Positions 1,612 to 56,493 of a stretch of DNA of 64,000 nucleotides are shown here, piece after piece. The notes beneath the pieces were generated by a model. That model made no database searches and had not been told where the DNA came from. It saw nothing but the letters and a program-made list of their open reading frames with translations. The stretch comes from Nitrospinota bacterium (lineage in GTDB: Bacteria > Nitrospinota_A > UBA7883 > JACRGQ01): the NCBI GenBank assembly GCA_016200345.1, contig JACQEX010000072.1, positions 7,233-71,232 on the forward strand, in the 5' to 3' direction. A program made the translations under genes and the position numbers. How positions within the stretch are numbered: position 1 is the first letter of the stretch; every line of letters starts with the position of its first letter.

Positions 1612-1767
1612 AAAAGGCGAGGCAATAAACCCTTATGACTCCATTTAAATCTACGGTAAAATGCGCTGACGCGGGCGTTCCGGCGGAGAGCTCGTGCGCT
1701 CCGCACGGTCTGCTTCACAATATTTTGCCGGTAGAATACGAACCAAGGACGGTTATGGAGGTAATGG

Positions 1768-13460: not shown

Positions 13461-14545
13461 CAAAAAAAACCGTCCTTTACGACAGACACGTCTCCGCCGG
13501 GGCGAAGATTGTGGATTTCGCGGGGTGGATGATGCCGGTTCAGTACGCCGGGGTTTTGGCGGAGCACGCCACTGTTCGGAACAACGCCGGGGTCTTCGAC
13601 GTCTCCCACATGGGGGAGGTTTTCGTGACAGGGCCGGAGGCGCCCGCGTTCGTGGACAACTTGGTTACGAACGACACGCGCGGAATGTCCGATGGGAACA
13701 TCCTTTACACGGTGATGTGCGACAACGCGGGCTTCGTGATAGACGACCTGCTGGTCTATAAAATTGGGCCCCAGAAATTTTTGCTCGTCGTCAACGCGTC
13801 CAACACGGAAAAAGATTTTAAGTGGATGCTCTCGCAAAAGGGGCGGTTCAACGTCGAGGTGGCGGACAGGTCGCCCGATTTGGGGATGCTGGCGGTGCAG
13901 GGGCCGAAGGCCGTCGCAATCGCGTCCAAAATTATTGCCATCCCCAAAAACTTGAAGTACTACAATTTCTTCACCGTAATGCGCGACGGAAACGAGCTGA
14001 TAGTCTCCCGCACCGGCTACACCGGCGAGGACGGAGTGGAAATCATCGCCAAGAACGACGATATAGTAAAACTTTGGGACGCGCTGTTCGAGGCCGGGAA
14101 GAGCGAGGGAATCGCCCCGGCGGGCCTTGCGGCGCGCGACCTACTGCGGATAGAGGCCGGCTACAGCCTGTACGGGCACGAACTGGACGAAAAGACCGAT
14201 CCCCTCTCGGCGGGTCTCTCCTGGGTTGTCAAAATGGAAGGCAGGGAGTTTGTCGGAAAGGCCGTGCTCAAAAACTTCGGCCGCGATAATAAAAGAATCT
14301 GCTTTGCCATGGAGGGGAAGGCCGTCCCGAGGCAGGGATATAAGTTGTTGACAAACGGAAAAGAATCGGGCTTCGTCACAAGCGGCACCTTTTCCCCTGT
14401 TTTGCAAAAGCCGTTTGGAATCGGCTATATTTTAGGTGAAGGGGGGAATGCTCCCCTCGATGGCAGTCTGACGGTCGAAATCCGGGGCAGGGAGATTCCC
14501 GCCAAGATTGTCAAACCGCCGGTACGGTTAAGGGTTGGAGGTTGA
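13457..14545 (+). CDS. gcvT: glycine cleavage system aminomethyltransferase T
   Basis: GTG 13457 overlaps the yjbQ stop. [24 protein letters not shown]... is the GcvT N-terminus; full-length folate-binding domains. Confidence 0.9.
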
Positions 14546-14546
14546 A

Positions 14547-14933
14547 ATGGATTATCCTGACGGGCTGTATTACACAAAAGACCACGAGTGGGGAATGGAC
14601 GAGAACGGCATCCTGACAGTCGGCATCACGGACTACGCCCAAGGGGAACTGGGCGACGTCGTTTACGTCGAGCTTCCGCAGGAAGGGACGATTATAAAGG
14701 CGGGCGAGCCGTTTGGCGTCGTCGAGTCAGTCAAGTCAGTATCCGACCTTTATTCTCCCGTCAGCGGAGAGGTGGTGGAGATAAACCCGGATTTGGAGGC
14801 GGAGCCGGAAACGGTCAACTCCTCCCCTTACGACCGCGGCTGGATGATAAAGATAGCCATGAGCAAGCCGGCCGAGCTGGAAAAACTGCTCTCGCCCGAA
14901 GCTTACGCGGAATACTTGGCGACCCTTAAGTAG
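14547..14933 (+). CDS. gcvH: glycine cleavage system H protein (lipoyl carrier)
   Basis: YTKDHEW...VESVKSVSDLYSPVSGEVVEIN contains the lipoyl-lysine motif (ESVK). GGAG SD before ATG 14547. Confidence 0.9.
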   Translation: MDYPDGLYYTKDHEWGMDENGILTVGITDYAQGELGDVVYVELPQEGTIIKAGEPFGVVESVKSVSDLYSPVSGEVVEINPDLEAEPETVNSSPYDRGWMIKIAMSKPAELEKLLSPEAYAEYLATLK

Positions 14934-14952
14934 GGGTCGCAAAAAAAATAGA

Positions 14953-16302
14953 ATGAGATACATACCTCTAACCCCCGAGGACAGGAAAACAATGCTGTCC
15001 TCGATAGGGGCCGCCTCCGTGGAGTCGCTTTTCTCGCACATCCGGGATGAAATACGGTTCAAGGGGAAATTCTCCATTCCAACCGCCATGTCCGAGCAGG
15101 AGGTCATGCGGTTTGCTTCGGAGCTTGCCGCGCAAAACTCACCAGCGGCGTCGGCTCCGTGCTTTCTCGGCGCCGGGGCGTACAATCATTTCGTCCCTTC
15201 CGCGGTGGACCAGTTAATAATGAGGAGCGAGTTCTACACCTCCTACACCCCGTACCAGCCGGAGATAAGCCAGGGGAACCTGCAGGCCATTTACGAGTAC
15301 CAAAGCTACGTCTGCTCACTCTTCAACATGGAGGTCGCAAACGCCTCGATGTACGACGGCGCAAGCGCGCTGGCGGAGGCGGTGCTGATGGCGTGCCGCA
15401 TCACAGGAAAAAACGAGGTAGTGATTTCCGACCTGGTGCACCCGAGGTGGCGAAAAACCGTCGCGACCTACGTCTTAAACAGGGGGACGAACATAATTCA
15501 AACCGAGGACCATCCGACCGGGAAAACCGACCCTGAGCGTCTTCTGAAGGCAATCACCCAAAACACGTCGGCCGTCGTGGTGCAATCGCCGAACTTCTTT
15601 GGCAACGTGGAGGATTGGGACGCCGTCGGCAAGGTCTGCCGCGAAAAGGGGGTTTTGTTCATCGCCTGCACCGCGGAGGCGATGTCGCTCGGCCTGCTTC
15701 GTCCCGCCGGTGATTTCGGCGCGGACATCGTCGTCGGCGAGGGGCAGTCGCTCGGCCTCGGCCTTAACTTCGGCGGCCCGTACCTCGGGATGTTCGCGAC
15801 TCGCGAGAAGCATCTTCGGCAGACGCCGGGGCGCATTTGCGGGCGCACGACGGACAAGGACGGCAAAAAGGGTTTTGTCCTCACCATGTCCACCCGCGAA
15901 CAACACATAAGGCGCGAAAAGGCCACGTCGAACATCTGCTCAAACCAGGCGTTGTGCGCGCTCACCACGACGATTTATCTGACCCTCATGGGAAAAGGCG
16001 GTTTTTCGCAGACGGCAAAAAATTGCCATTACGCCGCGCTGGCCCTTAAACAAAAAATTTCTTCCGTCGGGAACGGCGCGCGGAACAGCTTCGACCTTCC
16101 GTTCTTCAACGAGTTTTTGGCCGACCTCCCCGTTTCGGCGGACGAGCTGAACAAACGCCTCGCGAAGAAAGGGGCGGTGGGCGGCTACGACGTCTCAAGG
16201 GATTATCCGAAGATGGAAAATAAAATTTTGCTCGCCGCCACGGAGCTTACGACCCCAGCGGAGATAGACCTTATGGTGAAAACGCTGGGGGAGGGGAAAT
16301 AG
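14953..16302 (+). CDS. gcvPA: glycine dehydrogenase (decarboxylating) subunit 1
   Basis: 449 aa N-terminal half of P-protein (split form). Order gcvT-H-PA-PB. Confidence 0.9.
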   Translation: MRYIPLTPEDRKTMLSSIGAASVESLFSHIRDEIRFKGKFSIPTAMSEQEVMRFASELAAQNSPAASAPCFLGAGAYNHFVPSAVDQLIMRSEFYTSYTPYQPEISQGNLQAIYEYQSYVCSLFNMEVANASMYDGASALAEAVLMACRITGKNEVVISDLVHPRWRKTVATYVLNRGTNIIQTEDHPTGKTDPERLLKAITQNTSAVVVQSPNFFGNVEDWDAVGKVCREKGVLFIACTAEAMSLGLLRPAGDFGADIVVGEGQSLGLGLNFGGPYLGMFATREKHLRQTPGRICGRTTDKDGKKGFVLTMSTREQHIRREKATSNICSNQALCALTTTIYLTLMGKGGFSQTAKNCHYAALALKQKISSVGNGARNSFDLPFFNEFLADLPVSADELNKRLAKKGAVGGYDVSRDYPKMENKILLAATELTTPAEIDLMVKTLGEGK

Positions 16303-17805
16303 ATGGGCGGCGCGCAATCAAGGAATATTTTGGGAAAGCCGTACGCGAGGGGCATCGTCTTCAACGAGCCGCTCATATTTGAGCGAAGCCGGGCCGGACG
16401 CAACGGGTGCGACGTCGCAAAATCCCCGTTTGAGCAAAAGGAAATTTCCGCCGGTTTTGCAAAGGGAACGCTGAGGGAGGATTTTACGGGGTTCGTGGAG
16501 GTGAGCGAACCATCCGCCGTGCGCCATTTCACCCGGCTGTCGCAATGGAACTACGGGGTGGACTCCAATTTCTACCCGCTCGGCTCGTGCACGATGAAAT
16601 ACAACCCGAAGGTCAACGAGGCTGTCGCAAGGCTCGCCGGTTTCACCGGCCTCCACCCACTTCAGGACGAGGCTACGGCGCAGGGGGCGCTGAGGGTTAT
16701 TTACGAGTTGGAAAAATATCTCTGCGACATAGTGGGGATGCACTCGGCCTCGCTTCAACCGGCGGCGGGGGCGCAGGGGGAGCTTACGGGACTCATGCTC
16801 ATCCACGCCTACCTAAAGGACAAGGGGAACGCCAGAAAAAAAGTGATACTACCCGACTCGTCCCACGGCACAAACCCGGCCAGCGCCGCCTTGTGCGAGT
16901 ACTCGACCGTGCCGCTGGCAAGCGGCACGGACGGTCTTATTGATTGCTCAGCGTTGGAAAAATTGATGGACGAGGAGACCGCGGCCCTGATGGTCACAAA
17001 CCCGAACACGCTCGGGATGTTCGAAAAAAACATAAAAAGGGTCTGCGAGATAGTCCACGCCAAAGGGGGGCTGGTGTATGCGGACGGAGCGAACCTGAAC
17101 GCAATTTTGGGCAAGACCCGGTTCGGCGACATGGGGGTGGACGTCTGCCACATGAACCTGCACAAGACCTTCTCCACTCCGCACGGCGGCGGCGGCCCCG
17201 GCTCCGGCCCGGTGCTCGCCAAGGATTTTCTGGCGCCGTACATGCCCGCCCCGCGCGTGGTGCTGGCAGACGGACGCTACAAATTGGAGCACAATCCGCC
17301 GAAAAGCGTCGGAGCGTTAAACGCCTTTTATGGCAACTTCGGCGTCTACCTTAGGGCGTACGTTTATCTGCTATCCGTCGGCGGCGAGGGGCTGGGCGAC
17401 ATCTCCGACGCGGCGGTGCTGAACGCCAACTATATTTTGTCCAGATTAAAGGGGCATTACCACGTCCCGTACGACGGGCCGTGCATGCACGAGTGCGTCC
17501 TTTCGGACAAGTTCCAAAAAGACGCGCACGTCTCGACGCTCGACATAGCAAAATCGCTCATTGACAGGGGCTTCCACCCACCGACGATTTATTTCCCGCT
17601 TATCGTCAAGGGGGCGATGATGATAGAGCCGACCGAGTCCGAGTCGCTCGAAACCATGGACACCTTCGTGGACGCGATGGTGGACATCGCGGAGGTGGCG
17701 AAAACCCATCCGCTCTCCCTCGCCGAGGCGCCGGTTTTGGCGAAGATGCGTCGGCTGGACGAGACGCAGGCCGTGCGCAACCCCGACCTCCGCCACAAAC
17801 CCTGA
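16303..17805 (+). CDS. gcvPB: glycine dehydrogenase (decarboxylating) subunit 2 (PLP-binding)
   Basis: 500 aa C-terminal half of P-protein with PLP-lysine region (CHMNLHKTFSTPHGGGGPG). Confidence 0.9.
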   Translation: MGGAQSRNILGKPYARGIVFNEPLIFERSRAGRNGCDVAKSPFEQKEISAGFAKGTLREDFTGFVEVSEPSAVRHFTRLSQWNYGVDSNFYPLGSCTMKYNPKVNEAVARLAGFTGLHPLQDEATAQGALRVIYELEKYLCDIVGMHSASLQPAAGAQGELTGLMLIHAYLKDKGNARKKVILPDSSHGTNPASAALCEYSTVPLASGTDGLIDCSALEKLMDEETAALMVTNPNTLGMFEKNIKRVCEIVHAKGGLVYADGANLNAILGKTRFGDMGVDVCHMNLHKTFSTPHGGGGPGSGPVLAKDFLAPYMPAPRVVLADGRYKLEHNPPKSVGALNAFYGNFGVYLRAYVYLLSVGGEGLGDISDAAVLNANYILSRLKGHYHVPYDGPCMHECVLSDKFQKDAHVSTLDIAKSLIDRGFHPPTIYFPLIVKGAMMIEPTESESLETMDTFVDAMVDIAEVAKTHPLSLAEAPVLAKMRRLDETQAVRNPDLRHKP

Positions 17806-43399: not shown

Positions 43400-43532
43400 G
43401 GCTCCGAAAAGTTCCGTTGCCGGAAGGCCACTTCGAACCCATAAAACCTCGGGGAAAATGTAGATGAGGCGTATTCGTGGCGCCTATTAAAAATAATTTT
43501 TGGCACCATAATTGCTTCTTGGAGACGACCAG

Positions 43533-44459
43533 ATGATGAGGGGTTGTAATGGAAGAAACAAATTTTGGGTGGTCATTTCACTTTTGGCCACCATTATGAT
43601 TTCATCCACAGGCTGTTCCGGCTCCGCCACCCCAAGTGCGTCATCCGGTAGCGGGACTTGGGCCGGCCTGGGCGTCAGCACAAAATCCGACACCATAACG
43701 GGCGTCGGCGGTCTGCCACACGCCCAGTACATGGTGGACAGCCACGCCACGCTTAGTTGTGTAAACTGCCATGCCTCCGGGGTGGCGAGGGAATCCATCT
43801 GCGTCAACTGCCACCCGTTAAACGCACTAGGCTCCTCAATCACCGGCACGGCGGTCGACCTCTCGACGGTAACCACAAATGCCAACCACGTCACTCTGTC
43901 CACCGGCACGCATTGCAACGCCTGCCACTACTCCAACAACGGTTCCGGCGCGGGCCAGGGGTGGCGATGGCCGACCATAACCGACACGACGATAGTGTCG
44001 CCGACGTTGAAGACTAGAATTAACCACGCGCAGTGGCACGGCATTTTAAAAGGGGTCTGCCTAAAATGCCATCCGTTTGCAAGCATAACGCTTCCGTCCG
44101 CGCATCCCTCCGTAAACTCCTCCACCGCCTGCGAGTCTTGCCACTATTATTTGAACGGCAAATGGGGCGGCAGGCACATCTTGGTGTCGAGCGGGTGCAA
44201 CCAGTCCGGTTGTCACGCCACCCACGCCCACTCCACCGTCTCCAGCAGAACCATCACGTCCGGGCAGTCGTTCGGGAGCATAGATTGCGCCAACTGCCAC
44301 CAGGCGTCGGTGTCGGGTAGCTTTGCGAACTGGCTTGGCGCGGGTCATGAATCCGTAAGCAACGGTTGCAACGCCTGCCACCAATACCACCACAACTCAA
44401 GCGACTGCGTAAGTTGCCACTCCGTAAACTATTCTTCCTGGTCGGGCGCGAGGGATTGA
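43533..44459 (+). CDS. lipoprotein multiheme c-type cytochrome (8 CxxCH + 1 CX4CH)
   Basis: Signal peptide with lipobox (LATIMISSTGCSG). Heme motifs CVNCH, CVNCH, CNACH, CLKCH, CESCH, CNQSGCH, CANCH, CNACH, CVSCH. GGAG SD before ATG 43533. Confidence 0.85.
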   Translation: MMRGCNGRNKFWVVISLLATIMISSTGCSGSATPSASSGSGTWAGLGVSTKSDTITGVGGLPHAQYMVDSHATLSCVNCHASGVARESICVNCHPLNALGSSITGTAVDLSTVTTNANHVTLSTGTHCNACHYSNNGSGAGQGWRWPTITDTTIVSPTLKTRINHAQWHGILKGVCLKCHPFASITLPSAHPSVNSSTACESCHYYLNGKWGGRHILVSSGCNQSGCHATHAHSTVSSRTITSGQSFGSIDCANCHQASVSGSFANWLGAGHESVSNGCNACHQYHHNSSDCVSCHSVNYSSWSGARD

Positions 44460-44488
44460 TTGAAAAACAATATTGGCAGAGATTTAAA

Positions 44489-47365
44489 ATGACGGTTCGT
44501 AAGGGGGGGGCGCATAAGGTTGCGTCGGCGCCGCGTCTATGGCTGTTTCTACTTTTGTTTCCGCTTGTTTTTGCGTCCCCGGCCCTTGCCGCCGATTTTG
44601 GAAGCCTGATAACTCCGGGCGAGCTTTCCTCCCTCCATAAGGAGGCGGACGGAATATCAAACTGCACCAAGTGCCACATAAGGGGGAGCGGAATAACCAA
44701 CTCGGCCTGTCTGGAATGCCACAAGGACGTCTCCTCCGCCATTGACTCCAAAATCGGGTACCACGCCTCCGTATCGTCGCAAAAGTGCATAGAGTGCCAC
44801 ACCGACCACAAGGGGAAATCGTTCTCGCTGGTGGATTGGAGCCCGAAAAAATTCGACCACTCCAAGGCCGGGTACAACCTCACGGGCAAACACTCGCAGA
44901 CCGCCTGCGAAAAATGCCACAAGACAAAAACAAAGGGAGGGGCTCAGAGCTACCTCGGCGCGCAAACCGCGTGCAAATCGTGCCACGAGGACGTCCATAA
45001 AGGGGAGTTCAAGGAGGCCGCCTGCGACACGTGCCACAACACCGAGGGGTGGAAGTGGAAATACGTCAGGTTCGACCACAACAAGCCCTACCCGCTTGAC
45101 GGCAAACACGAAAAAGTCCCGTGCCTAAAATGCCATCCCGTCAAGGCAATATTCCTCGTGCCTGAAAAAGAGAAGTGCGTCACCTGCCATTTGAAGGACG
45201 ACAAGCACAAGGGCAAGCTCGGCCCGGCCTGTGAAAAATGCCACAAGACCGCCGGGTGGAAGGACATTTTGATGGATCACTCAAAGACAAGGTATCCGCT
45301 TGTCGAAAAACATTTGCAGGTCGCGTGCGAAAAATGCCATGTTGACTCGAAGAAGACCGGCTCTTTCAAACTGGCCCGGTTCGACGTCTGCGACGCGCCG
45401 GGATGCCACGACGTCGGCAAATTTGGCAACGTGCACGAAAAACAGTTCGTCGGCAAAACCTGCGACGCGTGCCACAACGTCGCGGGGTTCAAGCCGTCGT
45501 TGTTCAAGCACGAGGCCCAGGCTTACGTTGGTTTCAAACTGGCCGGCAAACACGCGCAGACCGCGTGCGTAAAATGCCACAGGCCCGATCCCATCACGAA
45601 GGTCGCTCTCTTCAAGCCCATTGTAACCACGTCTTGCGACGTAAAAGGGTGCCACGACGTGAAGGAGCGCGGGAACATCCACGGGCTTCAGTTCAAGGGG
45701 CAGAAGTGCGACGCATGCCACAACGAGCAGGGATGGAAACCGACCGTGTTCAGGCACAACGACGAGCGGTACGCGGGCTTTAAACTTTTGGGCAAACATG
45801 AAAAGACGGAGTGCTCCAAGTGCCACGTTCCCGATTCGCTCACCAAAGCGGCGTTGTACAAGCCATTAAACAGTTCCTCGTGCGACGCGAGGGGATGCCA
45901 CGACGTGAAGGAGCGGGGGGGCGTACATGGTTCGCAGTTCAAGGGTCTGCGGTGCGAGACCTGCCACAACGAGCAGGGGTGGAAGCCGACCCTTTTCAAG
46001 CATTCCGACGATAGATTCCAAATCTTCCGGCTTGTCGGGAAGCACGAGAAAACTCCGTGCGAAAAATGTCACAGAGCCGACGCGGACACGAAGGTGGTCA
46101 AATACAGGCCGATAGTCAGCACCACGTGCGACTGGGGCGGTTGCCACGACGTGAAGGAGCGCGGGAACGTCCACGGCCCTCAGTTCAAGCGGCAAACGTG
46201 CGACTCCTGCCACAACGAGCAGGGATGGAAGCCGACGCTTTTCAAACACGACGACCCGAAGTACGCCGGGTTCAAACTTTTGGGCAAGCACGAGAAAACG
46301 CCCTGCGAAAAATGTCATCCGACCGGCCCCGTCGGGACGGCTGTATACAAGCCGATAAACTACTCCTCCTGCTCCGAGGTGGCCTGCCACAAAAATCCGC
46401 ACGGCGAACAGTTCACGGATAAAAAATGCGAGCAGTGCCACAACGAGAGGGATTGGAAGGAGCTTACCTTCAACCACAAGACTCAGTCGCGCTTCCCCTT
46501 GGAAGGAAAACATATCCCGGCAAAATGCGACAAGTGTCACGCCAACAAAGTTTGGCGTCCTCTGGCGATGGAGTGCATAAACTGCCACAAGAAAGACGAC
46601 GACAAGGCCCACGGCGGTAAAATGGGGGACAAGTGCGTCTCGTGCCACACCGCCCAAAACTGGGAGCCGAATAATTTCTTCCACGACGTAACGGGGTTCA
46701 AGCTCCAATGGGCGCACAAGCAGATTGCCTGCACCGAGTGCCACAAGACGAAGGGCGTTTTCGCCGGCCTCGGGCCGGAGTGCACAAAATGCCACACCGA
46801 CCCGCATCTGAACCAATTCGGGCCGGCCCAGTGCTCGCAATGCCACACGGCCAAAAACTGGTACGCGGAAAAATTCAACCACGGCTTCACCGGCTTCAGG
46901 CTGGAGGGGGGGCACAGGGCGGCCTCGTGCGAGCAGTGCCACAAAAACAGGGCGTACAGGAGCCTTTCCACGGACTGCTACCGATGCCACCAAAAAGAAT
47001 TTACGCGGTCCGCGTTCCACGCCGGGCAGGGCTCCACGAACTGCGTCCTCTGCCACAAGGTTTACGGATGGAATCCGGCCTCGTTTTTCCACAAGACTAT
47101 GACGTTTACCGGCTATCACAAGGTGATTCAGTACACCTGCACGTCGTGCCACACCTCCAACCCGCCGACGACGGCCAACCTAAAATGGGCCGCGTCCGTG
47201 CAGTCGCAATGCTCCGTTTGTCACACCCCGCCGCACCCGGCGTCGGGGGCGCACTCCACCGGGACCTGTCCGACGTCGTGCGATTTGTGCCACAACACGT
47301 CGAATTTTACCTCCGTCTCGTCCAGCCTTCCGTCCTGCAAGCCGGGGGTGAAACATGGGCGTTGA
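44489..47365 (+). CDS. secreted giant multiheme c-type cytochrome (~31 CxxCH + ~5 CX4CH; tandem c7-like triheme modules)
   Basis: Signal peptide (..LVFASPALA|ADFG). 958 aa with CxxCH roughly every 25-30 aa. Repeated module C-x4-CHDVKERG...C-x2-CHNEQGWKPT.F.H....GFKL.GKHE.T.C.KCH, four times. Confidence 0.9.
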   Translation: MTVRKGGAHKVASAPRLWLFLLLFPLVFASPALAADFGSLITPGELSSLHKEADGISNCTKCHIRGSGITNSACLECHKDVSSAIDSKIGYHASVSSQKCIECHTDHKGKSFSLVDWSPKKFDHSKAGYNLTGKHSQTACEKCHKTKTKGGAQSYLGAQTACKSCHEDVHKGEFKEAACDTCHNTEGWKWKYVRFDHNKPYPLDGKHEKVPCLKCHPVKAIFLVPEKEKCVTCHLKDDKHKGKLGPACEKCHKTAGWKDILMDHSKTRYPLVEKHLQVACEKCHVDSKKTGSFKLARFDVCDAPGCHDVGKFGNVHEKQFVGKTCDACHNVAGFKPSLFKHEAQAYVGFKLAGKHAQTACVKCHRPDPITKVALFKPIVTTSCDVKGCHDVKERGNIHGLQFKGQKCDACHNEQGWKPTVFRHNDERYAGFKLLGKHEKTECSKCHVPDSLTKAALYKPLNSSSCDARGCHDVKERGGVHGSQFKGLRCETCHNEQGWKPTLFKHSDDRFQIFRLVGKHEKTPCEKCHRADADTKVVKYRPIVSTTCDWGGCHDVKERGNVHGPQFKRQTCDSCHNEQGWKPTLFKHDDPKYAGFKLLGKHEKTPCEKCHPTGPVGTAVYKPINYSSCSEVACHKNPHGEQFTDKKCEQCHNERDWKELTFNHKTQSRFPLEGKHIPAKCDKCHANKVWRPLAMECINCHKKDDDKAHGGKMGDKCVSCHTAQNWEPNNFFHDVTGFKLQWAHKQIACTECHKTKGVFAGLGPECTKCHTDPHLNQFGPAQCSQCHTAKNWYAEKFNHGFTGFRLEGGHRAASCEQCHKNRAYRSLSTDCYRCHQKEFTRSAFHAGQGSTNCVLCHKVYGWNPASFFHKTMTFTGYHKVIQYTCTSCHTSNPPTTANLKWAASVQSQCSVCHTPPHPASGAHSTGTCPTSCDLCHNTSNFTSVSSSLPSCKPGVKHGR
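45389..46372 (+). repeat. four tandem in-frame 246-bp repeats (82-aa triheme modules) inside the giant cytochrome gene, plus a degenerate fifth unit
   Basis: TGCGAC...GGNTGCCACGACGT repeat anchors at 45389, 45635, 45881 and 46127 (period exactly 246 nt). A divergent unit starts at 46370. Confidence 0.85.
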
Positions 47366-48638
47366 GAGGCCTGGTATCGCGAAGGTCTTGTGCGCGGCGG
47401 CGCTGGTGTTGTTGCCTGTCGAGGGCTTTGCGATGAACCTTAAGGGGCGTGTTTCGGAGTCGGTCTTGTACGTTACCGACGACTCCGCAAAACAAAACTA
47501 CTCCTACACGTGGAGCAAGCTAAGGCTGGACGCAACCGATATTTACGGCAACAAGGAGAACAGCGCGCATTTCGACGGCGCCTACACGGGCGCGTCCTCC
47601 AACGTTTACAACAGCCAGACCCCGCCGACAAGGATTAATTACGCGAACGTAAAAATGGAGAAACTGTTTCAAGACACCGACGTGGTCATCGGCAGGCAGG
47701 CGATAGACGACCTTGTGGGGGCGAGGCTGGACGGCGCGCTATTTGACATGCACTCGTCCGACGCCGCCGGTCTCGGCGTTTTCGGCGGCACGATGCCGGA
47801 TCCGTACATGGATTATTTTTCCTCCGGCTTCCTAACTTTTGGCGGCTTTGGGTATTACAAAAAAAAGGAGGCCGGGGTCACGCTTGGTTACGCGGAAAGC
47901 CTGTACAACGGCAACGAGGACCAGGCGTATATTTACGGCTCGACCTACCTGGCCCCGACGGACGAATTTGACGTGAACGGCTCCGCAAGGCTCGACCACA
48001 ACGCCGGCAACACCAGCGGATATGATTTCACCAACCTTTTGGTCAACGCCAACTACCGAAGCGGGTGGCGCGCCAACTTAAACCTAACGTACAACCAATA
48101 CCGCGCCGTCTGGTACCAGGCGTCGGAAACGATGAACTACGGGCTTGACATGGCGTTGCAAAAATCGGCGCGCGTTTTCACCGACGTCGCGTTGGTTCCG
48201 ACCGTGAAGGTGTACGCCGACTATGACTATCGCATAAGGGACAGCGACGGCCTGTCTGCCTCCCTGCTGATGGTGGGGCTGAAGGAGAACGACTTGATGG
48301 AGATTTTTTACTACAACGTCTCGTATCGCAACATAAATTATTTCACCGCCGTTTCATGGCAGGGGGCGCTTGCGGTCGGGGCGCAGTTCAACGAAAAGGC
48401 CACGGCCGAGTTGGGCGCGGCATACTCTGAAAACCAGCAAAACCAGACCTCGAACGGCATGACGCAGATTATTTACACCGCCTCGGCCGACTACACCGCC
48501 TCAAAATCTTGGATGTTCAACTGCTCGGTGGAGACCTCCACCCAGAAGTTTGTAAGCGTCGACTCCGTGTATCTGTCGAAATACAACGACCAATACCAGA
48601 CCACGACGGTTTTTGCCAACCTCACCTACCGTTTTTAA
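47355..48638 (+). CDS. outer-membrane beta-barrel (porin-like) protein
   Basis: Signal peptide (..LLPVEGFA|). Alternating amphipathic beta-strand pattern rich in Y/N/G/T. C-terminal ...ANLTYRF with terminal Phe. Start overlaps the cytochrome gene end. Confidence 0.75.
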   Translation: MGVERPGIAKVLCAAALVLLPVEGFAMNLKGRVSESVLYVTDDSAKQNYSYTWSKLRLDATDIYGNKENSAHFDGAYTGASSNVYNSQTPPTRINYANVKMEKLFQDTDVVIGRQAIDDLVGARLDGALFDMHSSDAAGLGVFGGTMPDPYMDYFSSGFLTFGGFGYYKKKEAGVTLGYAESLYNGNEDQAYIYGSTYLAPTDEFDVNGSARLDHNAGNTSGYDFTNLLVNANYRSGWRANLNLTYNQYRAVWYQASETMNYGLDMALQKSARVFTDVALVPTVKVYADYDYRIRDSDGLSASLLMVGLKENDLMEIFYYNVSYRNINYFTAVSWQGALAVGAQFNEKATAELGAAYSENQQNQTSNGMTQIIYTASADYTASKSWMFNCSVETSTQKFVSVDSVYLSKYNDQYQTTTVFANLTYRF

Positions 48639-48820: not shown

Positions 48821-49903
48821 TCAATCGCTGAACGGGTCCTGTTGGTCGTAGATTATGGAGTAGCTTATCGGACGGTAATTGGCCGAGCCGGACTTGGGGA
48901 TTAGAAACTGGTTCGCCACCCTCAGCCATTGGACGTCGGGCAAAAGCTCGCGAAGCTTTCCGTCCGGCGGAGGCGTGGAGTGCTCGTTCCTTTCGTACAC
49001 CACCTGAAAAACCGCCACGCCGTAGTCGTCGGCCCGGTGCACCAGGTAGTTGTCCCTAAATTCCCTCGCGGTCATCAGCCCGTCCTTTTCTATCATCTCG
49101 ACGTGCTCCGACGGAATTTTAACCAGGCAGTGCTTGGCGACGTTGTCCCGCGTGATTTTTGAGAACGTGCGCGACTCGGAGCTGTTCACGTACACGGTCG
49201 CCAGCGAGTCCCCCATGCTGAGAAGCTGATAGGCGACCATGGCGGCCGTCCGCCTGCCCGATACGGTGTGGTGGAAGCTGTAGTACTCGAAAAGTTTCTC
49301 CACCAGCGTCTCGGCGTATTTGTCCCCCTTTTCGTAAAGGTCCTTCGATATGTAGCGAAGTTGTTTCCCCAGCGACTCCGCGGCGAAGTCAATCAGCCAG
49401 TCTATGCGCACGTGAAAATGCGAGAGGTGGTAGCGCACCCTTTTTCGGGCGGAGGCGTCCTGCTGTATGAGCAGGGCGTAGTCCACGGGGAGGAGGCTTT
49501 TCAAAAGGTCGTGGAATTTTTCGTGCTCGTAATATTTTTGCACCTTCAAAAGTTGCGGGGCCACGCGCGCGCTTGAAAGGACTATCTCGGGCAGGTTTTC
49601 CTTGGTGACCTTGTTGTTGTCGAAATATCGGATGTATTTTTTCAGGTCGGCGCGCACCTCGTCCTCGGTAAAAATAACTATGAAGCCGTTGATGAGGTCG
49701 TTCTCGGTCTCCGTGACCTTGCCGCGCGGCTTTAGCTCCCTTTTTTCGACGAACTTGTAGTCGGCCTTCGCGTCGAGAAAATTCTTATAGGAGTCGTTCA
49801 CGCCGTAGTCAATGAGCGAGAAATCCAGCTCGTTGCGCAGGGTCGTGTAAAGCGCCCTTCGCAACTTTTGGTTTCTACTCAGCTCGGCGTCGGATTTAAA
49901 CAT
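48821..49903 (-). CDS. hypothetical cytoplasmic protein (360 aa), no recognisable family
   Basis: Long uninterrupted ORF starting at ATG 49903. Has an Rx5H segment (RKRVRYHLSHFH) of uncertain meaning. Confidence 0.55.
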   Translation of the reverse strand: MFKSDAELSRNQKLRRALYTTLRNELDFSLIDYGVNDSYKNFLDAKADYKFVEKRELKPRGKVTETENDLINGFIVIFTEDEVRADLKKYIRYFDNNKVTKENLPEIVLSSARVAPQLLKVQKYYEHEKFHDLLKSLLPVDYALLIQQDASARKRVRYHLSHFHVRIDWLIDFAAESLGKQLRYISKDLYEKGDKYAETLVEKLFEYYSFHHTVSGRRTAAMVAYQLLSMGDSLATVYVNSSESRTFSKITRDNVAKHCLVKIPSEHVEMIEKDGLMTAREFRDNYLVHRADDYGVAVFQVVYERNEHSTPPPDGKLRELLPDVQWLRVANQFLIPKSGSANYRPISYSIIYDQQDPFSD

Positions 49904-50004: not shown

Positions 50005-51354
50005 CTATCGGGGTCTGGATTCGCCGTGGTGCGTGTCCATGCTGACTCCGCAGGCGCGAAGAAATTCGTTCGGAAGGTTGCCGCCCGCAAACACAAAGAC
50101 GGAGTCGTTCGGATATTCGCGCACGTTCCCCTTTTGCTCGATTGTCACGGAGTCGGTCTTTATCTCCTTCACGTTGGACTCCATCATGAGGGCCACTTTT
50201 TTACCCGCGACAAGGTTGTCCAGCCTTTTTTGATTGTCCGCCTTGATTCTTCCGAACGCCGGACCGCGATACGAAAGCGACACATTTGTCCCTTTCTGGC
50301 ACGAAAAGGCGACCGCGGCCTCCACAGCGCTGTCGCCGCCGCCGACTACCAAAATTTTTTGGTTTTCGTGGTGTTCCGGCTCCAATAGCCTGTACATCAC
50401 CTTTGGAAGTTGCTCCCCCGGAACGCCGAGTTTTCTAGGCGTGCCCCTTCGTCCCGTGGTCAGCAGAACATACCTTGTGCTGATGTTTCTATTCGAGGTC
50501 TTAACATTAAACGCCTCTCCCGTGTTTTCGATGGAGAGGGCCTTTTCGCCGGTGTTTATCTCCAGCCCCGTTTTCTCGACGATGTTTTTCCAAAGCGCCA
50601 CAAGCTCCTCTTTGCTAAGCGTGCCGACTTTTATTTTGCCGTACATCGGAACGTCCGCTGGCCGGGTCATGACCACCTTTGCGCGCGGGTAGGAGAGTAT
50701 GGCGCCGCCGAAGGATTCCTCCTGGTCCAGCAACAAGAACTTCATCTTTAAAAATTTCGCCTGTAGGGCGGCGGACATCCCCGCCGGGCCGGCGCCGACA
50801 ACCACCAAGTCCACCATGTCCGCCGGTCTGTTATACGGCGCACCCCTAAAATCCTCGAAACTATAATCCACCGCCTCCTTTCCCTGAAGGATGGCGTTTT
50901 TTATAAGGCCCATTCCACCCAATTCCCCGGCGATAAAAAGTCTTTTTACGTTGGACTCGAAGTTTGGAAAAACCTGCGGCAGGTCTACGCCGCGCTTTTC
51001 CGTTCCGAACACAAGCTCGATGGCTCCGACCGGGCACGCCCTGGCGCAGGCCCCGTGCCCCACGCACCTCGAGGCGTATATGGGCTCGGCCTGGTTGTTT
51101 ACCTTGCCCAAAATCTCCTGCTCGGGGCAGGCGGTGATGCAGGCCCCGGAGCCTATGCATATGGCCTTGTTAACCTTCGGGTGAATCGTCGCCGGCTCGT
51201 AAAGCCCGAATTTTTGCGCCTCGGATATCTTGACCCTCACCTTTTTCGACTTCTTTTTTTGCGACATCAGATAAGGAACGAGCACGACGGCCACGATGAA
51301 CGCCCCCACCACAAACGTGGCGTTTTCCATTAACAGCGACGTTAAAAAATCCAT
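50005..51354 (-). CDS. membrane-anchored 2x[4Fe-4S] ferredoxin domain fused to FAD/NAD(P)-dependent pyridine nucleotide-disulfide oxidoreductase (TrxR-like)
   Basis: N-terminal TM helix. CIGSGACITACP and CVGHGACARACP cluster motifs. Two Rossmann GxGxxG/A motifs (VVVGAGPAGMSAA, ILVVGGGDSAVEAA). Confidence 0.8.
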   Translation of the reverse strand: MDFLTSLLMENATFVVGAFIVAVVLVPYLMSQKKKSKKVRVKISEAQKFGLYEPATIHPKVNKAICIGSGACITACPEQEILGKVNNQAEPIYASRCVGHGACARACPVGAIELVFGTEKRGVDLPQVFPNFESNVKRLFIAGELGGMGLIKNAILQGKEAVDYSFEDFRGAPYNRPADMVDLVVVGAGPAGMSAALQAKFLKMKFLLLDQEESFGGAILSYPRAKVVMTRPADVPMYGKIKVGTLSKEELVALWKNIVEKTGLEINTGEKALSIENTGEAFNVKTSNRNISTRYVLLTTGRRGTPRKLGVPGEQLPKVMYRLLEPEHHENQKILVVGGGDSAVEAAVAFSCQKGTNVSLSYRGPAFGRIKADNQKRLDNLVAGKKVALMMESNVKEIKTDSVTIEQKGNVREYPNDSVFVFAGGNLPNEFLRACGVSMDTHHGESRPR

Positions 51355-51355
51355 T

Positions 51356-52249
51356 TCAAACCTTGAACAGGTAAAAGACCCCTATGTGCAAAAACATCAC
51401 GATGAACATGATTACGGCAAACGGTTTATGGAAGACGTGCCAGTGGTGGAGCAGTTTGTGCGACACGTCCAAAAACATCCGCGAACGGACCAGCCTTCGT
51501 TTCTCCTTTATCAACCAGTAGAGCCTGTGCTTCACGTGGGCGGGCATGGAGACGTCGCCCTTCAACTCGGCCCGCACCCGCCACAGGGCGCCCATGTTTT
51601 CCAAATCGGCCTTCGCCATCGCGAAGAGCGAGGCAAGGGCGCCGCTTTCCTCGTCGGGCGGCTCCGTCGAAATGCCGTCGAAATGCGACGATACGCGCGG
51701 CCCCGACTCGTATTTGTTTATCTGGGCGTTAATAGTCTCCATAGACTCGTCCAAATCTCCCATCATCAGTTCGTTTCCCGTGACGCTTCTGGGAATCTTC
51801 ACGTAAAGATAGCGGCCCAATATGCCGCTAAGCGCCACCAGCACCGCCGACCAGTAGCTGAGGGAGACGATGCCGCCGAATTTGTAGGTGCTGTGCACGG
51901 TAATCAGCACGGTGCCGACGATTCCCAAAAAAATATGAACGTCCAGCCACAACCTTATCGGCCCGGCGTCCACCATAAACTTAAAGCGCTTTCTAAAGGA
52001 GTAGAGCATCATTATAACAAAACAGGCGGAACCGAGCCAGCCGGTGAGGTGCCAAATCCCCTTGTTTGGCTCTTTGGCGACCTTGTATGTCGTCATCCCC
52101 GCCTCGTTCAGCCACTTAACGATGCCGTACGGTTTGCCGGTCAGCTGTAGCCAGCTTTCGACCAAAATGACGGCCGACCCGGCAAGACCGGCGATGGTAA
52201 GAAAATTTATCGTCAATTCCAGCAGGCCGCCCTGTTTTTTTTGCGCCAT
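51356..52249 (-). CDS. integral membrane protein with paired conserved His in TM helices (ferric-reductase/cytochrome b-like di-heme transmembrane domain)
   Basis: Five or six TM helices. His pairs 13 residues apart in TM3 (DVHIFLGIVGTVLITVHS) and His-rich TM5 (HHWHVFHKPF...FLHIG). AGGAG SD. Only 1 nt gap to the oxidoreductase gene. Confidence 0.6.
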   Translation of the reverse strand: MAQKKQGGLLELTINFLTIAGLAGSAVILVESWLQLTGKPYGIVKWLNEAGMTTYKVAKEPNKGIWHLTGWLGSACFVIMMLYSFRKRFKFMVDAGPIRLWLDVHIFLGIVGTVLITVHSTYKFGGIVSLSYWSAVLVALSGILGRYLYVKIPRSVTGNELMMGDLDESMETINAQINKYESGPRVSSHFDGISTEPPDEESGALASLFAMAKADLENMGALWRVRAELKGDVSMPAHVKHRLYWLIKEKRRLVRSRMFLDVSHKLLHHWHVFHKPFAVIMFIVMFLHIGVFYLFKV

Positions 52250-52545
52250 CTTTTTCTCCTACTCTTTTATTTCGTGGCGCCCGATTTTATTACATACCCG
52301 GTGCCCGTGTATACAGGGTAGTTTAGCCGGGTCAGTTCATAGCAATTTGTCCAATTATTGCAAAAAGCACAAAAAACGCCAAAGATGCAAAAAAGGTCAA
52401 TAAAGTCAAAGACGCAAAGGCCCTCCATGCAGATGCGGTGTATAAAGTAGACATGATGGATTGTGGCATAGGAGCAGAAGTTAAGAATGTGAATTTTCGC
52501 TTTTCTTTCTGGAGTTGTCAAGAAGCCACATAAAGGAAAATCCAT

Positions 52546-52574
52546 TTGACAAAAAATCACGGTTTTGGTAGTCT
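52546..52574 (+). promoter_or_regulatory. sigma70-like promoter (TTGACA -17 nt- TAGTCT) upstream of small ORF 52621
   Basis: TTGACA at 52546-52551, 17-nt spacer, TAGTCT at 52569-52574. It lies in an AT-rich divergent intergenic region. Confidence 0.4.
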
Positions 52575-52620
52575 CCAGTAAGAAGTCAGCGAAGTAATTC
52601 ATTTTATAGAGAGAACACAT

Positions 52621-52839
52621 ATGACGGATTTTTTATTCGCCACCCCGGGATTTTTTATGGGGATGGTTCGGGCATTGGATTTGGGCTCTACGTTTAACGC
52701 TTATAACGCAAGCAAAACCCCCTCTGAAGCTGATGCACTGGCTTTTTATAATGACTTTAAGGCCATTGGCGACGACCTTCGCTTGGTTATGAAGAGTGAA
52801 GAGGCGAAAATAGCCGCAAAATCTCTTAAGTTGGCGTGA
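52621..52839 (+). CDS. hypothetical small protein (72 aa) in AT-rich segment
   Basis: Preceded by a sigma70-like promoter (TTGACA-17-TAGTCT). No known family. Confidence 0.4.
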   Translation: MTDFLFATPGFFMGMVRALDLGSTFNAYNASKTPSEADALAFYNDFKAIGDDLRLVMKSEEAKIAAKSLKLA

Positions 52840-52991
52840 GCAAACGTAAGAGCCATTCCGTAAGTATCACCCAACACAAACTTACTGTTGGCCCTATCCC
52901 ACCTCCCGAGCAACTCGCCCGGTATAATGCGATTGTTCCTGGGTTCGCCGAACGTATCATAAGCAGATGGGAAGAATAGGGAACCCATCGC

Positions 52992-53234
52992 ATGAAGTTG
53001 GAGAGGGATGTCATCGGGTCGGGTATTTGGCTAGCGTATCTTGGCCTTCTTTCTGCATTTGTTTTGGGGCTGGTTGGCGTTGGAGGCGGGATTTGGCTTA
53101 TCCACGATGGAAAAGATGTATATGGGCTAGCCGCCAGCATTACGGCCTTGGGGACGCTTGCGGGTGTATATATTTGGGGAAAATCAAAACAGGGGAAAGA
53201 GCTTCAAGGGAAGCGTGAGATCATAGGACGATAG
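52992..53234 (+). CDS. hypothetical small 2-TM membrane protein (80 aa)
   Basis: Two G-rich hydrophobic helices (GIWLAYLGLLSAFVLGLVGVGGGIWLI; GLAASITALGTLAGVYIW). Confidence 0.4.
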   Translation: MKLERDVIGSGIWLAYLGLLSAFVLGLVGVGGGIWLIHDGKDVYGLAASITALGTLAGVYIWGKSKQGKELQGKREIIGR

Positions 53235-53587
53235 ACTTCTTGTCCATTGTCCCATACCAGTTTGGCAAGCTGTACTGGGTCGCTCGGACATTCTAATCGC
53301 TTTTTCATGCTCCCGTTATAAGACACAAGTTAAGGAAAATACACTTTTTGACTTATTCACAATTCAAACTGGCCCACTACAGTTTTGCCACATCGTAAAA
53401 CGTGGGGTCATTGGTAGCGACATTCCCACTCCCCTAGAATTACTGGTGCGGTGTTTTTGTGGCGCGAGTGTTACGATTCCAACGCATTTCGTCGATTTTG
53501 CTTGAAATCTGAAGTTATTAAGTCAAAAATTTCAATAAGTTAAGAAATGGCCTTTGGCATTTAAATTGCTCATTTGGAGCGGGCATT

Positions 53588-54445
53588 ATGAAAAGGGTCA
53601 ACACACTTAATTGGAATAATCGCATGGCGAGGCTGTCGCCGGTTTTTGCAACGATTTCTGCGTTACTTTTCTTTGCGGGGTGCGGGGAGGGGGAGTCAAA
53701 ACCGAACCTTCAGTCACCAACGTCGGGTAGTGTTGGGATTGTCCTTAAGGATTGGGTCGGGGTGGGGGTGAATACCGTCACCACTTCGGCGGCTTTGTCG
53801 TCCGTCAACCACAGCGAATATCTATTGGGTTCCCACGCTTCTTATACGTGCGCCGATTGCCACAATCCGGTGGATTCGACCACCGGTTTGCAGACCGCGA
53901 TACAACGCGACCAAATATGCGCCCGATGTCATCCGTTTTCTAGATATAGCGCGGTGACGACAAGCGTGGATCACGTCGCGTTGAAATCCGGGACTCATTG
54001 CAACGCCTGCCACCATTCAGCCTCCGGCGCGTCGCTTTCCACAATTATCGGATGGAGGTGGTCCTCCGTCACCAGCCCCATCGTCCGCGTGACGCACAAA
54101 ACATGGCACGGCAACGTTAAGGGAACCTGCCTAAACTGCCACACTCTGGCAAACGAAACGCTTCCGTCCTCCCACCCGGCCGTGACGTCCGCCACGGCGT
54201 GCGAGCCGTGCCACCATTACTCAAACGGCAAATGGGCCGGCCAGCACCGCAAGGTCACGAGCGGATGCAACATATCCGGGTGCCACACCGGGCATTATTC
54301 CGGCAACGACTGCTCCCTGTGTCACACCGGCGCCGCGGCGGGGGGATACACGAACTGGGCTATTTCATTCAGCAAAGGGGGGCACCAAATACAGTTCGGT
54401 TCGGCCTCGTGCGGGATATGCCACAGCGGGGGCTTTGGCGACTAA
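53588..54445 (+). CDS. lipoprotein multiheme c-type cytochrome (7 CxxCH + 1 CX4CH), paralog of 43533-44459
   Basis: Lipobox LLFFAGCG. Heme motifs CADCH, CARCH, CNACH, CLNCH, CEPCH, CNISGCH, CSLCH, CGICH. About 50% identity to the upstream lipoprotein cytochrome over the core (SGTHCNACH...GCN.SGCH). Confidence 0.85.
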   Translation: MKRVNTLNWNNRMARLSPVFATISALLFFAGCGEGESKPNLQSPTSGSVGIVLKDWVGVGVNTVTTSAALSSVNHSEYLLGSHASYTCADCHNPVDSTTGLQTAIQRDQICARCHPFSRYSAVTTSVDHVALKSGTHCNACHHSASGASLSTIIGWRWSSVTSPIVRVTHKTWHGNVKGTCLNCHTLANETLPSSHPAVTSATACEPCHHYSNGKWAGQHRKVTSGCNISGCHTGHYSGNDCSLCHTGAAAGGYTNWAISFSKGGHQIQFGSASCGICHSGGFGD

Positions 54446-54582: not shown

Positions 54583-56493
54583 ATGGGAAAAATTATTGGA
54601 ATTGACCTTGGCACAACCAACTCGGTGGTTGCCATTATGGAAGGCGGACAGCCGAAAGTCATTGTAAATGAAGAGGGTTCACGGCTCACTCCCTCTATCG
54701 TCGCTTTTGCGAAGGACGGCGAGGTGCTTGTCGGCCAAGTCGCCAAACGGCAGGCCATAACAAACCCAACCAACACGGTTTATTCCATAAAGCGGTTTAT
54801 GGGGCGAAAATTCTCCGAGGTGCAGGAAGAGATGAAGATGGTCCCTTACAAAGTGGTCGAGGGGCCGAACCAAGACGTACGAATCGTCGCCTCCGGGAAG
54901 CAGTACAGCCCGCCGGAGATTTCCGCCATGATTCTCGGCAAACTGAAAAAATCGGCCGAGATATACCTCGGCGAAAAAGTAACGGAGGCGGTAATCACCG
55001 TCCCGGCGTATTTTAACGACGCGCAAAGGCAGGCGACAAAGGACGCGGGACGAATCGCGGGCCTTGAGGTAAAAAGAATAATCAACGAGCCGACGGCCGC
55101 CGCGCTGGCGTACGGGCTGGACAAGTCGCGCGACCACATGATAGCCGTTTACGACCTTGGCGGCGGAACGTTCGACATCTCCGTGCTGGAGGTCGGGGAC
55201 AACGTCGTGGAGGTCAAGGCGACCAACGGCGACACGCATCTGGGCGGCGATAACTTTGACCAGCGGATAATTGACTGGCTGGCGACGGAATTTAAAAAGG
55301 AGCAGGGGATAGACCTTACCAAGGACGCGATGGCCCTCCAGCGTCTAAAAGAGGCGGCTGAAAAGGCGAAAATGGAGCTTTCATCGGTTGTCGAGACCGA
55401 CATAAACCTCCCGTTCATCACTGCGGACGCCACCGGGCCGAAGCACATGAACCTAAAGCTCACACGCTCCAAGTTCGAACAGATGATAGACGACTATCTG
55501 CAAAGGACGCTCGGCCCGCTAAAACAGGCCATGAGCGACTCCGGCCTAAAGCCGGACGACATACAAGAGGCCGTTATGGTCGGCGGCTCCACCCGCGTTC
55601 CGAAGGTCAACGAAATCGTAAAAGGATACTTCGGCGGAAAAGAGCCCCACAAGGGCGTCAACCCGGACGAGGTCGTGGCGCTCGGCGCCGCCGTCCAAGC
55701 GGGAGTTTTGGCGGGCGACGTGAAGGACATCCTTCTTTTGGACGTCACCCCGTTGTCCCTCGGCATAGAAACTTTGGGCGGGGTCATGACGAAGCTCATC
55801 GAGCGCAACACGACGATTCCCACTAGAAAAGGCGAGGTCTTTTCCACCGCCGCGGACGGGCAGACGTCGGTCGAAATCCACGTGCTCCAAGGGGAGCGCG
55901 AGATGGCGCGGGACAACCGCACCCTCGGCAAGTTTCATCTGGACGGCATACCCTCCGCGCCCAGGGGAATCCCGCAGATAGAGGTCGCTTTCGACATAGA
56001 CGCCAACGGAATAGTCCATGTAACGGCAAAGGACAAAGGCACCGGCAAGGAGCAGAAGATAACCGTGACCGCCAGCTCCGGCATCAACGAGGAAGAAATC
56101 AAGAAGATGGTCAAGGAAGCCGAGGCGAACGCCGAGGACGACCGCAAAAAACGCGAGGCGGTTGACGCAAAAAACACGGCCGACAACCTTGTCTATCAAA
56201 CCGAGAAAACACTTACGGAGAACAAGGAGAAAGTCGGGGGCGAAGTCGCCAAGCAGGTCGAGGAAGCCCTCGCCAAGTGTAAAAAGGCGATGGAGGGAAC
56301 CAACGTGGACGAGATAAAAGCGACAGCCGAGGAATTGCGAAAGGCCTCCCATAAGATGGCCGAGGCGATTTACCAGCAGGCCTCCGCCCAAGGCGGCGCA
56401 GGCACCCCTCCGCAGGGCGGAGCGGGCGGCGAGGCGCCGGGCGGCGACAAAGGAAACGTGGTAGACGCCGAGTTCGAGGACGCGAAGAAGTAA
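54583..56493 (+). CDS. dnaK: molecular chaperone DnaK (Hsp70)
   Basis: [18 protein letters not shown] and the rest of the Hsp70 signatures. 636 aa. Confidence 0.97.

Follow-up and report, generated by a model that had tools for sequence, protein, structure and literature searches.

A 36-heme cytochrome with CX4CH sites from Nitrospinota, a probable periplasmic wire of a PCC3-type porin-cytochrome conduit

A stretch of 64,000 nucleotides from a Nitrospinota bacterium (GenBank assembly GCA_016200345.1, contig JACQEX010000072.1; hereafter the window) carries a gene for a very large multiheme cytochrome, in which several heme motifs have the form CX4CH in place of the canonical CxxCH and recur with a period of 246 nt. 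This locus raises three questions: do the CX4CH sites bind heme, did the repeats arise recently in this genome, and what would a cytochrome of this size be for? Our analysis leads us to consider that the protein is probably the periplasmic multiheme wire of a porin-cytochrome conduit of the PCC3 type, a family of conduits that is itself predicted. The protein is already public, annotated as hypothetical, in a Nitrospinae metagenome-assembled genome.

Triheme modules and CX4CH sites

Read from its first ATG, which lies 29 nt past the stop codon of the preceding gene, the cytochrome begins with a Sec-type signal peptide that we called by eye from the sequence and not with a predictor (Table 1). 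We counted 31 CxxCH and five CX4CH motifs, that is 36 heme motifs comprising 72 of the 74 cysteines; a motif scan of the 958 residues found no CX3CH. Composition-matched shuffles of the protein hold on average only 0.45 CX4CH, so that the five observed are not due to chance. There is one heme motif per 26.6 residues, with 75 histidines for 36 hemes and four methionines past the signal peptide. Over the entire length of the protein, a long gap of 32-40 residues recurs after every third heme, and the cytochrome can thus be divided into twelve triheme modules. The C-terminal part of about 150 residues is rich in serine and threonine. A sequence search returned 2636 homologues, the closest known relatives being 51% identical overall. 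An initial description of this DNA (the sequence-only reading) had announced a very large modular multiheme cytochrome with five CX4CH sites mixed with CxxCH. Both statements agree with our counts, and the motifs lie exactly where it had placed them, each one opening the unit listed for it in Table 1.

The first four CX4CH motifs follow each other at spacings of exactly 246, 246 and 246 nt. The four in-register units described earlier are thus real, with the precision that the fourth is itself 243 nt long. Heme spacing within the 82-aa units is 24/35/23, and the module of the fifth motif (CSEVACH) is out of register with the four units of the 82-aa type. These four units are an enlarged variant of the triheme module of 66-71 aa that is common in the family.

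We then considered whether the CX4CH sites could be true heme sites. An alignment of 29 units from the window and its orthologues displays the invariant residues C1, C6, H7, H16, C25, C28, H29, H41, L51, H55, C60, C63 and H64. Each unit thus keeps three attachment motifs (one CX4CH and two CxxCH) and exactly three further histidines (H16, H41 and H55). On the basis of this invariance, each 82-aa unit should contain three hemes and possesses enough invariant histidines for bis-histidine ligation. Conservation of the CX4 cysteines in orthologues had been proposed earlier as a check of their role, and it is observed for C1 and C6, together with H7, in all 29 units. In a whole-protein alignment of 44 sequences, the corresponding columns hold CX4CH in most close relatives and plain CxxCH in more distant ones, as exemplified by CSD--CHYD under the window's CSEVACHKN. 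The orthologue P0013 displays CAEEAACH, a C-x5-CH motif, at the column of the window's CDAPGCH. Since the aligned columns hold CX4CH, CxxCH or C-x5-CH, we regard CX4CH as a length variant of the ordinary attachment loop, which, judging from these alignments, seems to tolerate two, four or five residues.

One could argue that the first cysteine of CX4CH does not bind heme, and that these sites would instead carry a heme held by a single thioether, a disulfide or a metal. However, the invariance of C1, C6 and H7, the canonical CxxCH at the aligned site in distant homologues and the presence of exactly three spare invariant histidines per unit for three hemes make this alternative very improbable. 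Precedents also argue against it. CX4CH is a catalogued minor heme motif (PMC11492766), tetraheme cytochrome c3 has two CX4CH sites in which heme is bound via both cysteines (PMC10454114), and a CX4CH heme was demonstrated by mass spectrometry in MmcA (PMC11024163). We thus consider that the CX4CH sites of the window cytochrome very likely bind heme.

These precedents also indicate that the initial statement that such sites are rare and require a tolerant heme lyase was overstated, and there is no need to invoke a lyase dedicated to CX4CH. The Ccm system of Escherichia coli matures CX3CH and CX4CH variants. Neither Pfam nor NCBIfam detected a cytochrome-maturation (Ccm/Ccs) or heme lyase gene in the approximately 34 ORFs (open reading frames) of the window that were scanned, a scan that left out some ten ORFs of 180 aa or more at 29-38 kb and 60-64 kb of the window. 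A review of Ccm System I makes no statement on CX4CH (PMC3601427). The enlarged module offers a clean natural case of a longer attachment loop accommodated in a heme chain.

Divergence and history of the repeat units

An exact period of 246 nt could suggest that the repeat block is an artefact of assembly or a very recent amplification, and that the true heme count is different, as repeats in metagenome assemblies may collapse or expand. However, the four units are only 60-70% identical in DNA (49-65% in protein), Tandem Repeats Finder detects in the block only 2.7 copies with 70% matches, and the longest exact run common to any two units is 27 nt. The shortness of this shared run makes a collapse or expansion during assembly very unlikely, as does the occurrence of an identical 958-aa protein on two contigs from two sources, NCBI and Logan. 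The intact reading frame and the same unit structure in orthologues also speak against such an artefact, to which we give hardly any credit. Mis-assembly, the objection that the sequence-only reading had itself foreseen, was thus rejected.

The same reading had taken the exact period as a sign of recent duplication or ongoing concerted evolution, and this proposal was not supported. Third codon positions are 44-60% identical among the four units, to be compared with 28-36% against the unrelated fifth module, and 31-46% of the codons that specify the same amino acid in two units differ. When 49 units, taken from 16 proteins, are arranged in a neighbour-joining tree, window unit 1 clusters with unit 1 of six orthologues (P0002-P0007) and window unit 3 with unit 2 of P0002 and P0003, so that both have positional orthologues. 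Units 2 and 4 form the sole lineage-specific pair, which adjoins unit 3 of P0002 and P0003; they therefore point to one duplication that postdates the separation from the closest known relatives. With a DNA identity of 70%, and thus a divergence that has already reached 30%, even this duplication is old. On the grounds of divergence and of the unit tree, we rejected for this genome both concerted evolution and a recent duplication. Selection against insertions and deletions in a module that packs three hemes is a simpler explanation of the exact 246-nt period.

As for the idea that the heme count varies by gain and loss of units, it holds between lineages but not as a recent event here. The orthologues examined contain from one to six full CX4CH units, and those that were tallied have totals of 27, 30, 33, 36, 42 and 51 heme motifs. 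More recent amplifications are found in other loci: a 246-nt period is present in 3.2 copies with 86% matches in L001 and in 4.4 copies with 83% matches in L004, and a homologue of the Gallionellaceae type repeats a triheme unit of 213 nt at 87%. We propose that the repeat units of the window derive from old duplications, and that gain or loss of whole modules would shift the heme count by three between lineages. In this family, the length of the wire evolves by whole triheme modules.

Link to PCC3 porin-cytochrome clusters

PCC3 clusters associate a porin with two multiheme cytochromes, one extracellular and rich in S/T/A/G, the other periplasmic and repetitive, and with an inner-membrane protein (PMC5566968, He et al. 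2017). The latter, a putative di-heme b protein, is about 300 aa long and has five transmembrane (TM) helices, of which TM4 bears SGXXG while TM3 and TM5 each bear WX3HX13H, a signature of the PCC3 and PCC4 inner-membrane proteins (PMC5566968). In the Gallionellaceae pangenome, the PCC3 periplasmic subunit has 21, 24 or 27 hemes (PMC10734462). Among the homologues of the window cytochrome, proteins of 664-666 aa with 27 hemes match it with E values of about 1e-146 to 1e-141 and 35-36% identity over 74% of the query, and P0090, which is one of these, carries the label Gallionellaceae in its source. These proteins fit the 21/24/27-heme periplasmic subunit (PMC10734462), a comparison made through 27-heme homologues including P0090 and not through Slit_0869 or Slit_1448 themselves.

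Each of the other parts has a counterpart in the window (Table 1). The big cytochrome, with its 36 motifs, its low number of residues per heme and this homology, corresponds to the repetitive periplasmic cytochrome of very high heme content. An outer-membrane barrel gene, modelled with 22 strands, overlaps it. The upstream gene encodes a second multiheme cytochrome, rich in S/T/A/G and a candidate for the extracellular one, and the inner-membrane protein displays both WX3HX13H motifs and SGXXG in the expected order. Since all the defining features of PCC3 that can be checked in silico are found, we regard the window cluster as a member of this family.

The barrel gene is tightly coupled to the cytochrome gene, its ATG overlapping the stop codon of the latter by 11 nt, and a homologous barrel gene directly follows the big cytochrome in all six Nitrospinota-type loci (five of the five related loci). 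The barrel protein has no Pfam or NCBIfam match; a profile search gathered approximately 300 representative relatives. AlphaFold2, with 40 of these relatives as alignment, produced a model of 22 strands with a pLDDT of 89.3 and a pTM of 0.81. Foldseek matched this model with outer-membrane porins, usher pores and AlgE, and MtrB is absent from the 50 best structural matches.

The small cytochrome gene upstream probably starts at ATG 43533 or 43536. Its product displays a lipobox-like STGC and contains 43% of S+G+T+A, two traits known from the extracellular cytochromes of PCC3 (PMC5566968), and it matches Pfam Cytochrome_C7 with 26.8 bits. Such an upstream gene is present in two of the six Nitrospinota-type loci, and L005 has a 335-aa homologue at the same position. 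The second small lipoprotein cytochrome is a paralogue of the first one (36% identity, E 6e-57), and a candidate surface cytochrome thus stands at either end of the cluster.

On the opposite strand, 2.7 kb past the barrel gene, lies the gene of the inner-membrane protein. A Kyte-Doolittle scan of the 297-aa product revealed three hydrophobic regions (about 9-35, 97-123 and 125-146), and two further helices were recognized by eye, one of them around the second motif at 270-288. The same WX3HX13H and SGXXG motifs occur in the inner-membrane proteins of L002, L003 and L004. L003, a locus of the Gallionellaceae type that encodes one of the 27-heme homologues, contains an inner-membrane protein (E 5e-15 with that of the window), two cytochromes of 666 and 373 aa, the former being this homologue, and a porin of 717 aa, with a divergent Fe-S flavoprotein beside them. 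The Fe-S flavoprotein of the window is 59-60% identical to its counterparts in L002 and L004 and 49% to that of L003, and an N-terminal hydrophobic stretch, seen by eye in the window copy only, was interpreted as a membrane anchor. This flavoprotein and the inner-membrane gene are adjacent in three of the six Nitrospinota-type loci as well as in L003; the recurrent flavoprotein is not part of the published four-gene description of PCC3.

Table 1. Features of the cytochrome locus in the window (coordinates in nt, position 1 being the first nucleotide of the window)
Feature	Coordinates	Strand	Remarks
ORF with the big cytochrome	44366..47365	+	999 aa; the one long ORF of the region
36-heme cytochrome	44489..47365	+	958 aa from the first ATG at 44489
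Signal peptide of the big cytochrome	44489..44590	+	Sec-type, MTVRKGGAHKVASAPRLWLFLLLFPLVFASPALA/ADFG (...FASPALA/ADFG)
CX4CH triheme unit 1, CDAPGCH	45389..45634	+	82 aa; positional orthologue of unit 1 in P0002-P0007
CX4CH triheme unit 2, CDVKGCH	45635..45880	+	82 aa; sister to unit 4, 70% DNA identity
CX4CH triheme unit 3, CDARGCH	45881..46126	+	82 aa; clusters with unit 2 of P0002 and P0003
CX4CH triheme unit 4, CDWGGCH	46127..46369	+	81 aa, 243 nt
Shorter triheme module, CSEVACH	46370..46573	+	68 aa, ordinary size; CxxCH at the aligned position in distant homologues
Small lipoprotein cytochrome	43512..44459	+	9 heme motifs (8 CxxCH and CNQSGCH); candidate cell-surface protein
Outer-membrane beta-barrel	47355..48638	+	427 aa, 22 predicted strands, C-terminal YRF
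ORF, candidate lineage-specific insertion	48821..49903	-	360 aa, between the barrel and Fe-S flavoprotein genes
Fe-S flavoprotein	50005..51354	-	2x[4Fe-4S] domain and pyridine-nucleotide-disulfide-type FAD domain (Pfam)
Inner-membrane protein, putative di-heme b	51356..52249	-	297 aa; WLDVH-x13-H, SGILG, WHVFH-x13-H
Second small lipoprotein cytochrome	53588..54445	+	285 aa, 8 heme motifs including CNISGCH, lipobox FAGC
Flagellin, FliW, glycine-cleavage T and P proteins, DnaK	79..2438, 13241..17805, 54583..56493		Ordinary chromosomal context

Some additional features of these loci can be mentioned. The Fe-S flavoprotein genes found beside a PCC3-type inner-membrane protein in other loci are located at 12838..14178 in L002, 11562..12902 in L004 and 5555..6862 in L003. 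The 360-aa ORF that follows the barrel gene has no Pfam or NCBIfam match; in L002 and L004 there is no room at that position for a gene of such a size, and from this comparison the ORF may be a lineage-specific insertion. The region 52250..53587, which separates the second small cytochrome gene from that of the inner-membrane protein, has a lower GC content (0.45-0.48, to be compared with about 0.56 around it) and contains only small ORFs of 72-119 aa. P0015 (L002, 8001..11507) and P0008 (L004, 6001..10218) display a long S/T-rich C-terminal extension with repeats of the type ...MTF-G-H...C..CH...KWPGA...DC..CH, and no separate small cytochrome gene lies beside the big one. These two proteins may be fusions of a periplasmic part with an extracellular one.

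We also searched for the class to which the window cytochrome belongs. Taken as a whole, it matches Pfam Cytochrome_C7 (PF14522) with 91.7 bits for a cut-off of 24.8, and Cytochrom_c3_2 with 71.5 bits. The modules flanking the CX4CH units reach about 50 bits on Cytochrome_C7, the four-unit block 25.8 bits and the single CX4CH units 13.9-16.9 bits, below the cut-off. A weak match of 38.8 bits was obtained with the MtrC/MtrF domain II/IV model, and a match of 35.3 bits with Cytochrom_CIII covers residues 849-898 of the 999-aa ORF, in its C-terminal part and outside the CX4CH units. In NCBIfam, the scores stay below the cut-off for TIGR04257, the c7-type triheme "nanowire" domain (16.4 bits for a cut-off of 40), and for TIGR03508, the MtrA/DmsE decaheme family (24.4 bits for 192.2). 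A search of the PDB with the full sequence gave no match at E <= 0.01. The 29-unit profile gave a best E value of 0.021, through the motifs only, with c3 chains at 0.7-0.9, and thus failed to link the unit to c7/c3 cytochromes through a solved structure. The domain type c7/c3 that the sequence-only reading had proposed for the units can therefore be kept at the level of the superfamily, but not for single units, which score below the Cytochrome_C7 cut-off and for which no solved structure was found.

These matches with Cytochrome_C7 and Cytochrom_c3_2 over the whole protein, its triheme build and a plain Sec signal peptide devoid of lipobox would also suit a free periplasmic electron store, a "capacitor" like the c7 polymers of Geobacter (GSU1996 family), which would not be threaded into a barrel. 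We consider this alternative unlikely. The family's own model, TIGR04257, is far from being matched, the CX4CH units contain no methionine and their three distal ligands are apparently all invariant histidines, and the barrel gene overlaps the stop codon of the cytochrome, a pairing kept in all six loci. Another hypothesis is that the big cytochrome would itself be secreted, as an extracellular cytochrome or filament, the small lipoproteins having another role. Its S/T-rich C-terminal part of about 150 aa recalls the extracellular PCC3 cytochromes, and in P0008 and P0015 this part is extended with many repeats while no small cytochrome gene adjoins. On the other hand, most of the protein is homologous to a subunit predicted to be periplasmic in the literature, there are no secretion-system genes nearby and no sign of polymerisation. 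We therefore hold this second alternative for less likely still than the first one.

We thus favor a periplasmic wire, for which the following scheme can be proposed. The big cytochrome would be exported by the Sec system and c-type heme would be attached at 36 sites, five of them CX4CH. All hemes are probably bis-histidine ligated and would form one continuous chain of twelve triheme modules, whose length, by analogy with MtrA, could span the periplasm. One end of the chain would lie inside the 22-strand barrel and meet the 9-heme lipoprotein cytochrome at the surface. The other end would stand at the inner membrane and exchange electrons with the di-heme-type protein and the anchored Fe-S flavoprotein. 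What the data establish are the motifs and their conservation, the modular build, the homology, the synteny and the barrel fold; heme occupancy, topology and assembly of this complex are what we infer.

Several observations weigh against this scheme. Growth on Fe(II) did not induce the two PCC3 clusters of Sideroxydans ES-1 but led to their down-regulation (PMC8788666). The similarity of the window barrel to the 717-aa porin of L003 is not significant in a pairwise comparison (E 0.18), and the profile comparison by hhalign is at most suggestive, with a probability of 33% and a GRQ...R-DG stretch common to both. The flavoprotein and inner-membrane genes are on the opposite strand, about 1.4 kb past the barrel gene with the unrelated 360-aa ORF between, and they are absent beside the orthologues in L001, L005 and L006. 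To this can be added that no maturation gene was found among the ORFs scanned, within the limits of that scan (about ten ORFs at 29-38 and 60-64 kb lying outside it). Finally, the AlphaFold2 model of the cytochrome, built from the 44-sequence alignment and without hemes, has a pLDDT of 58.6 and a pTM of 0.28 and supports no claim, and Foldseek found no match for it in the PDB, so that the length and shape of the chain are tentative.

One could go further and imagine that the conduit is a self-contained path from the cytoplasm to the cell surface that bypasses the quinone pool. The pair formed by the anchored Fe-S flavoprotein and the di-heme protein looks like a split NOX/ferric-reductase architecture, through which electrons could move between the 36-heme chain and the NAD(P)H or ferredoxin of the cytoplasm. 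By gaining or losing copies of the 82-aa module (one to six), the wire could be adjusted in length to how wide the periplasm is or to how far the wire reaches through the barrel, and P0008 and P0015, as single polypeptides with periplasmic and extracellular parts, would thread the barrel. We put this idea forward as a speculation that is unlikely to hold.

Comparison with other known systems

A first parallel can be drawn with the MtrCAB complex of Shewanella, in which the lipoprotein decaheme cytochrome MtrC is associated with the periplasmic decaheme cytochrome MtrA, located inside the 26-strand barrel MtrB. The window cluster has the same gene order (surface lipoprotein cytochrome, periplasmic cytochrome, barrel) and presumably the same logic, in which a barrel insulates a chain of hemes. 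However, its cytochrome and barrel have no homology to MtrA and MtrB, and the cytochrome has 36 hemes where MtrA has 10. MtrA is about 8 nm long for 10 hemes. By analogy, a chain of 36 hemes might span the entire periplasm and dispense with a shuttle.

The c7 polymers of Geobacter (GSU1996; TIGR04257) also consist of tandem triheme modules of about 70-80 aa that form a long heme chain, and Cytochrome_C7 is the best Pfam family of the window cytochrome. Nevertheless, the domains of these polymers have one His-Met heme each, whereas the ligands of the window cytochrome are apparently all histidines. Moreover, its TIGR04257 score is only 16.4 bits for a cut-off of 40, its units start with CX4CH and its gene is coupled to that of a barrel. 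As for cytochrome c3 of Desulfovibrio (class III), the classical example of a protein with CX4CH sites, it shares with the window protein the mixture of CX4CH and CxxCH and, probably, bis-histidine hemes (PMC10454114), but the Cytochrom_CIII match of the latter is found in its C-terminal part and not in the CX4CH units.

The closest parallel is that with the PCC3 clusters. Both are characterized by a triheme build with heme counts in threes (21/24/27 in PCC3, 27 to 51 in the family of the window cytochrome), by a low number of residues per heme and by a neighbouring barrel, an S/T-rich cytochrome and an inner-membrane protein bearing the signature. The PCC3 locus L003 has, in addition, the same Fe-S flavoprotein (49% identity) adjoining. 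The differences are of several kinds. The PCC3 clusters described so far belong to Proteobacteria and that of the window to Nitrospinota. The window cytochrome has 36 hemes and five CX4CH sites in enlarged modules, whereas CX4CH is absent from six homologues of 662-666 aa with 27 hemes (P0090, P0097, P0100, P0102, P0105 and P0112). Its barrel has 427 aa and 22 strands and no significant sequence similarity to the 717-aa PCC3 porin. Finally, the genes follow the order lipoprotein cytochrome, big cytochrome and barrel, and the inner-membrane genes are read from the other strand.

In the titles and opening lines of the abstracts of the literature searched, no porin-cytochrome cluster from Nitrospinota was described. 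We likewise did not find described this Nitrospinota cluster form with a compact 22-strand barrel, the enlarged CX4CH triheme module, the 246-nt amplification in several lineages or the recurrent Fe-S flavoprotein neighbour. Altogether, PCC3-type clusters are found widely and may serve to exchange electrons with minerals; the window locus extends them to Nitrospinota in a compact form, in which a 22-strand barrel gene overlaps the wire gene and lipoprotein cytochromes flank the cluster. This does not overturn current ideas; the value of the locus is that of a well-defined structural and biochemical target.

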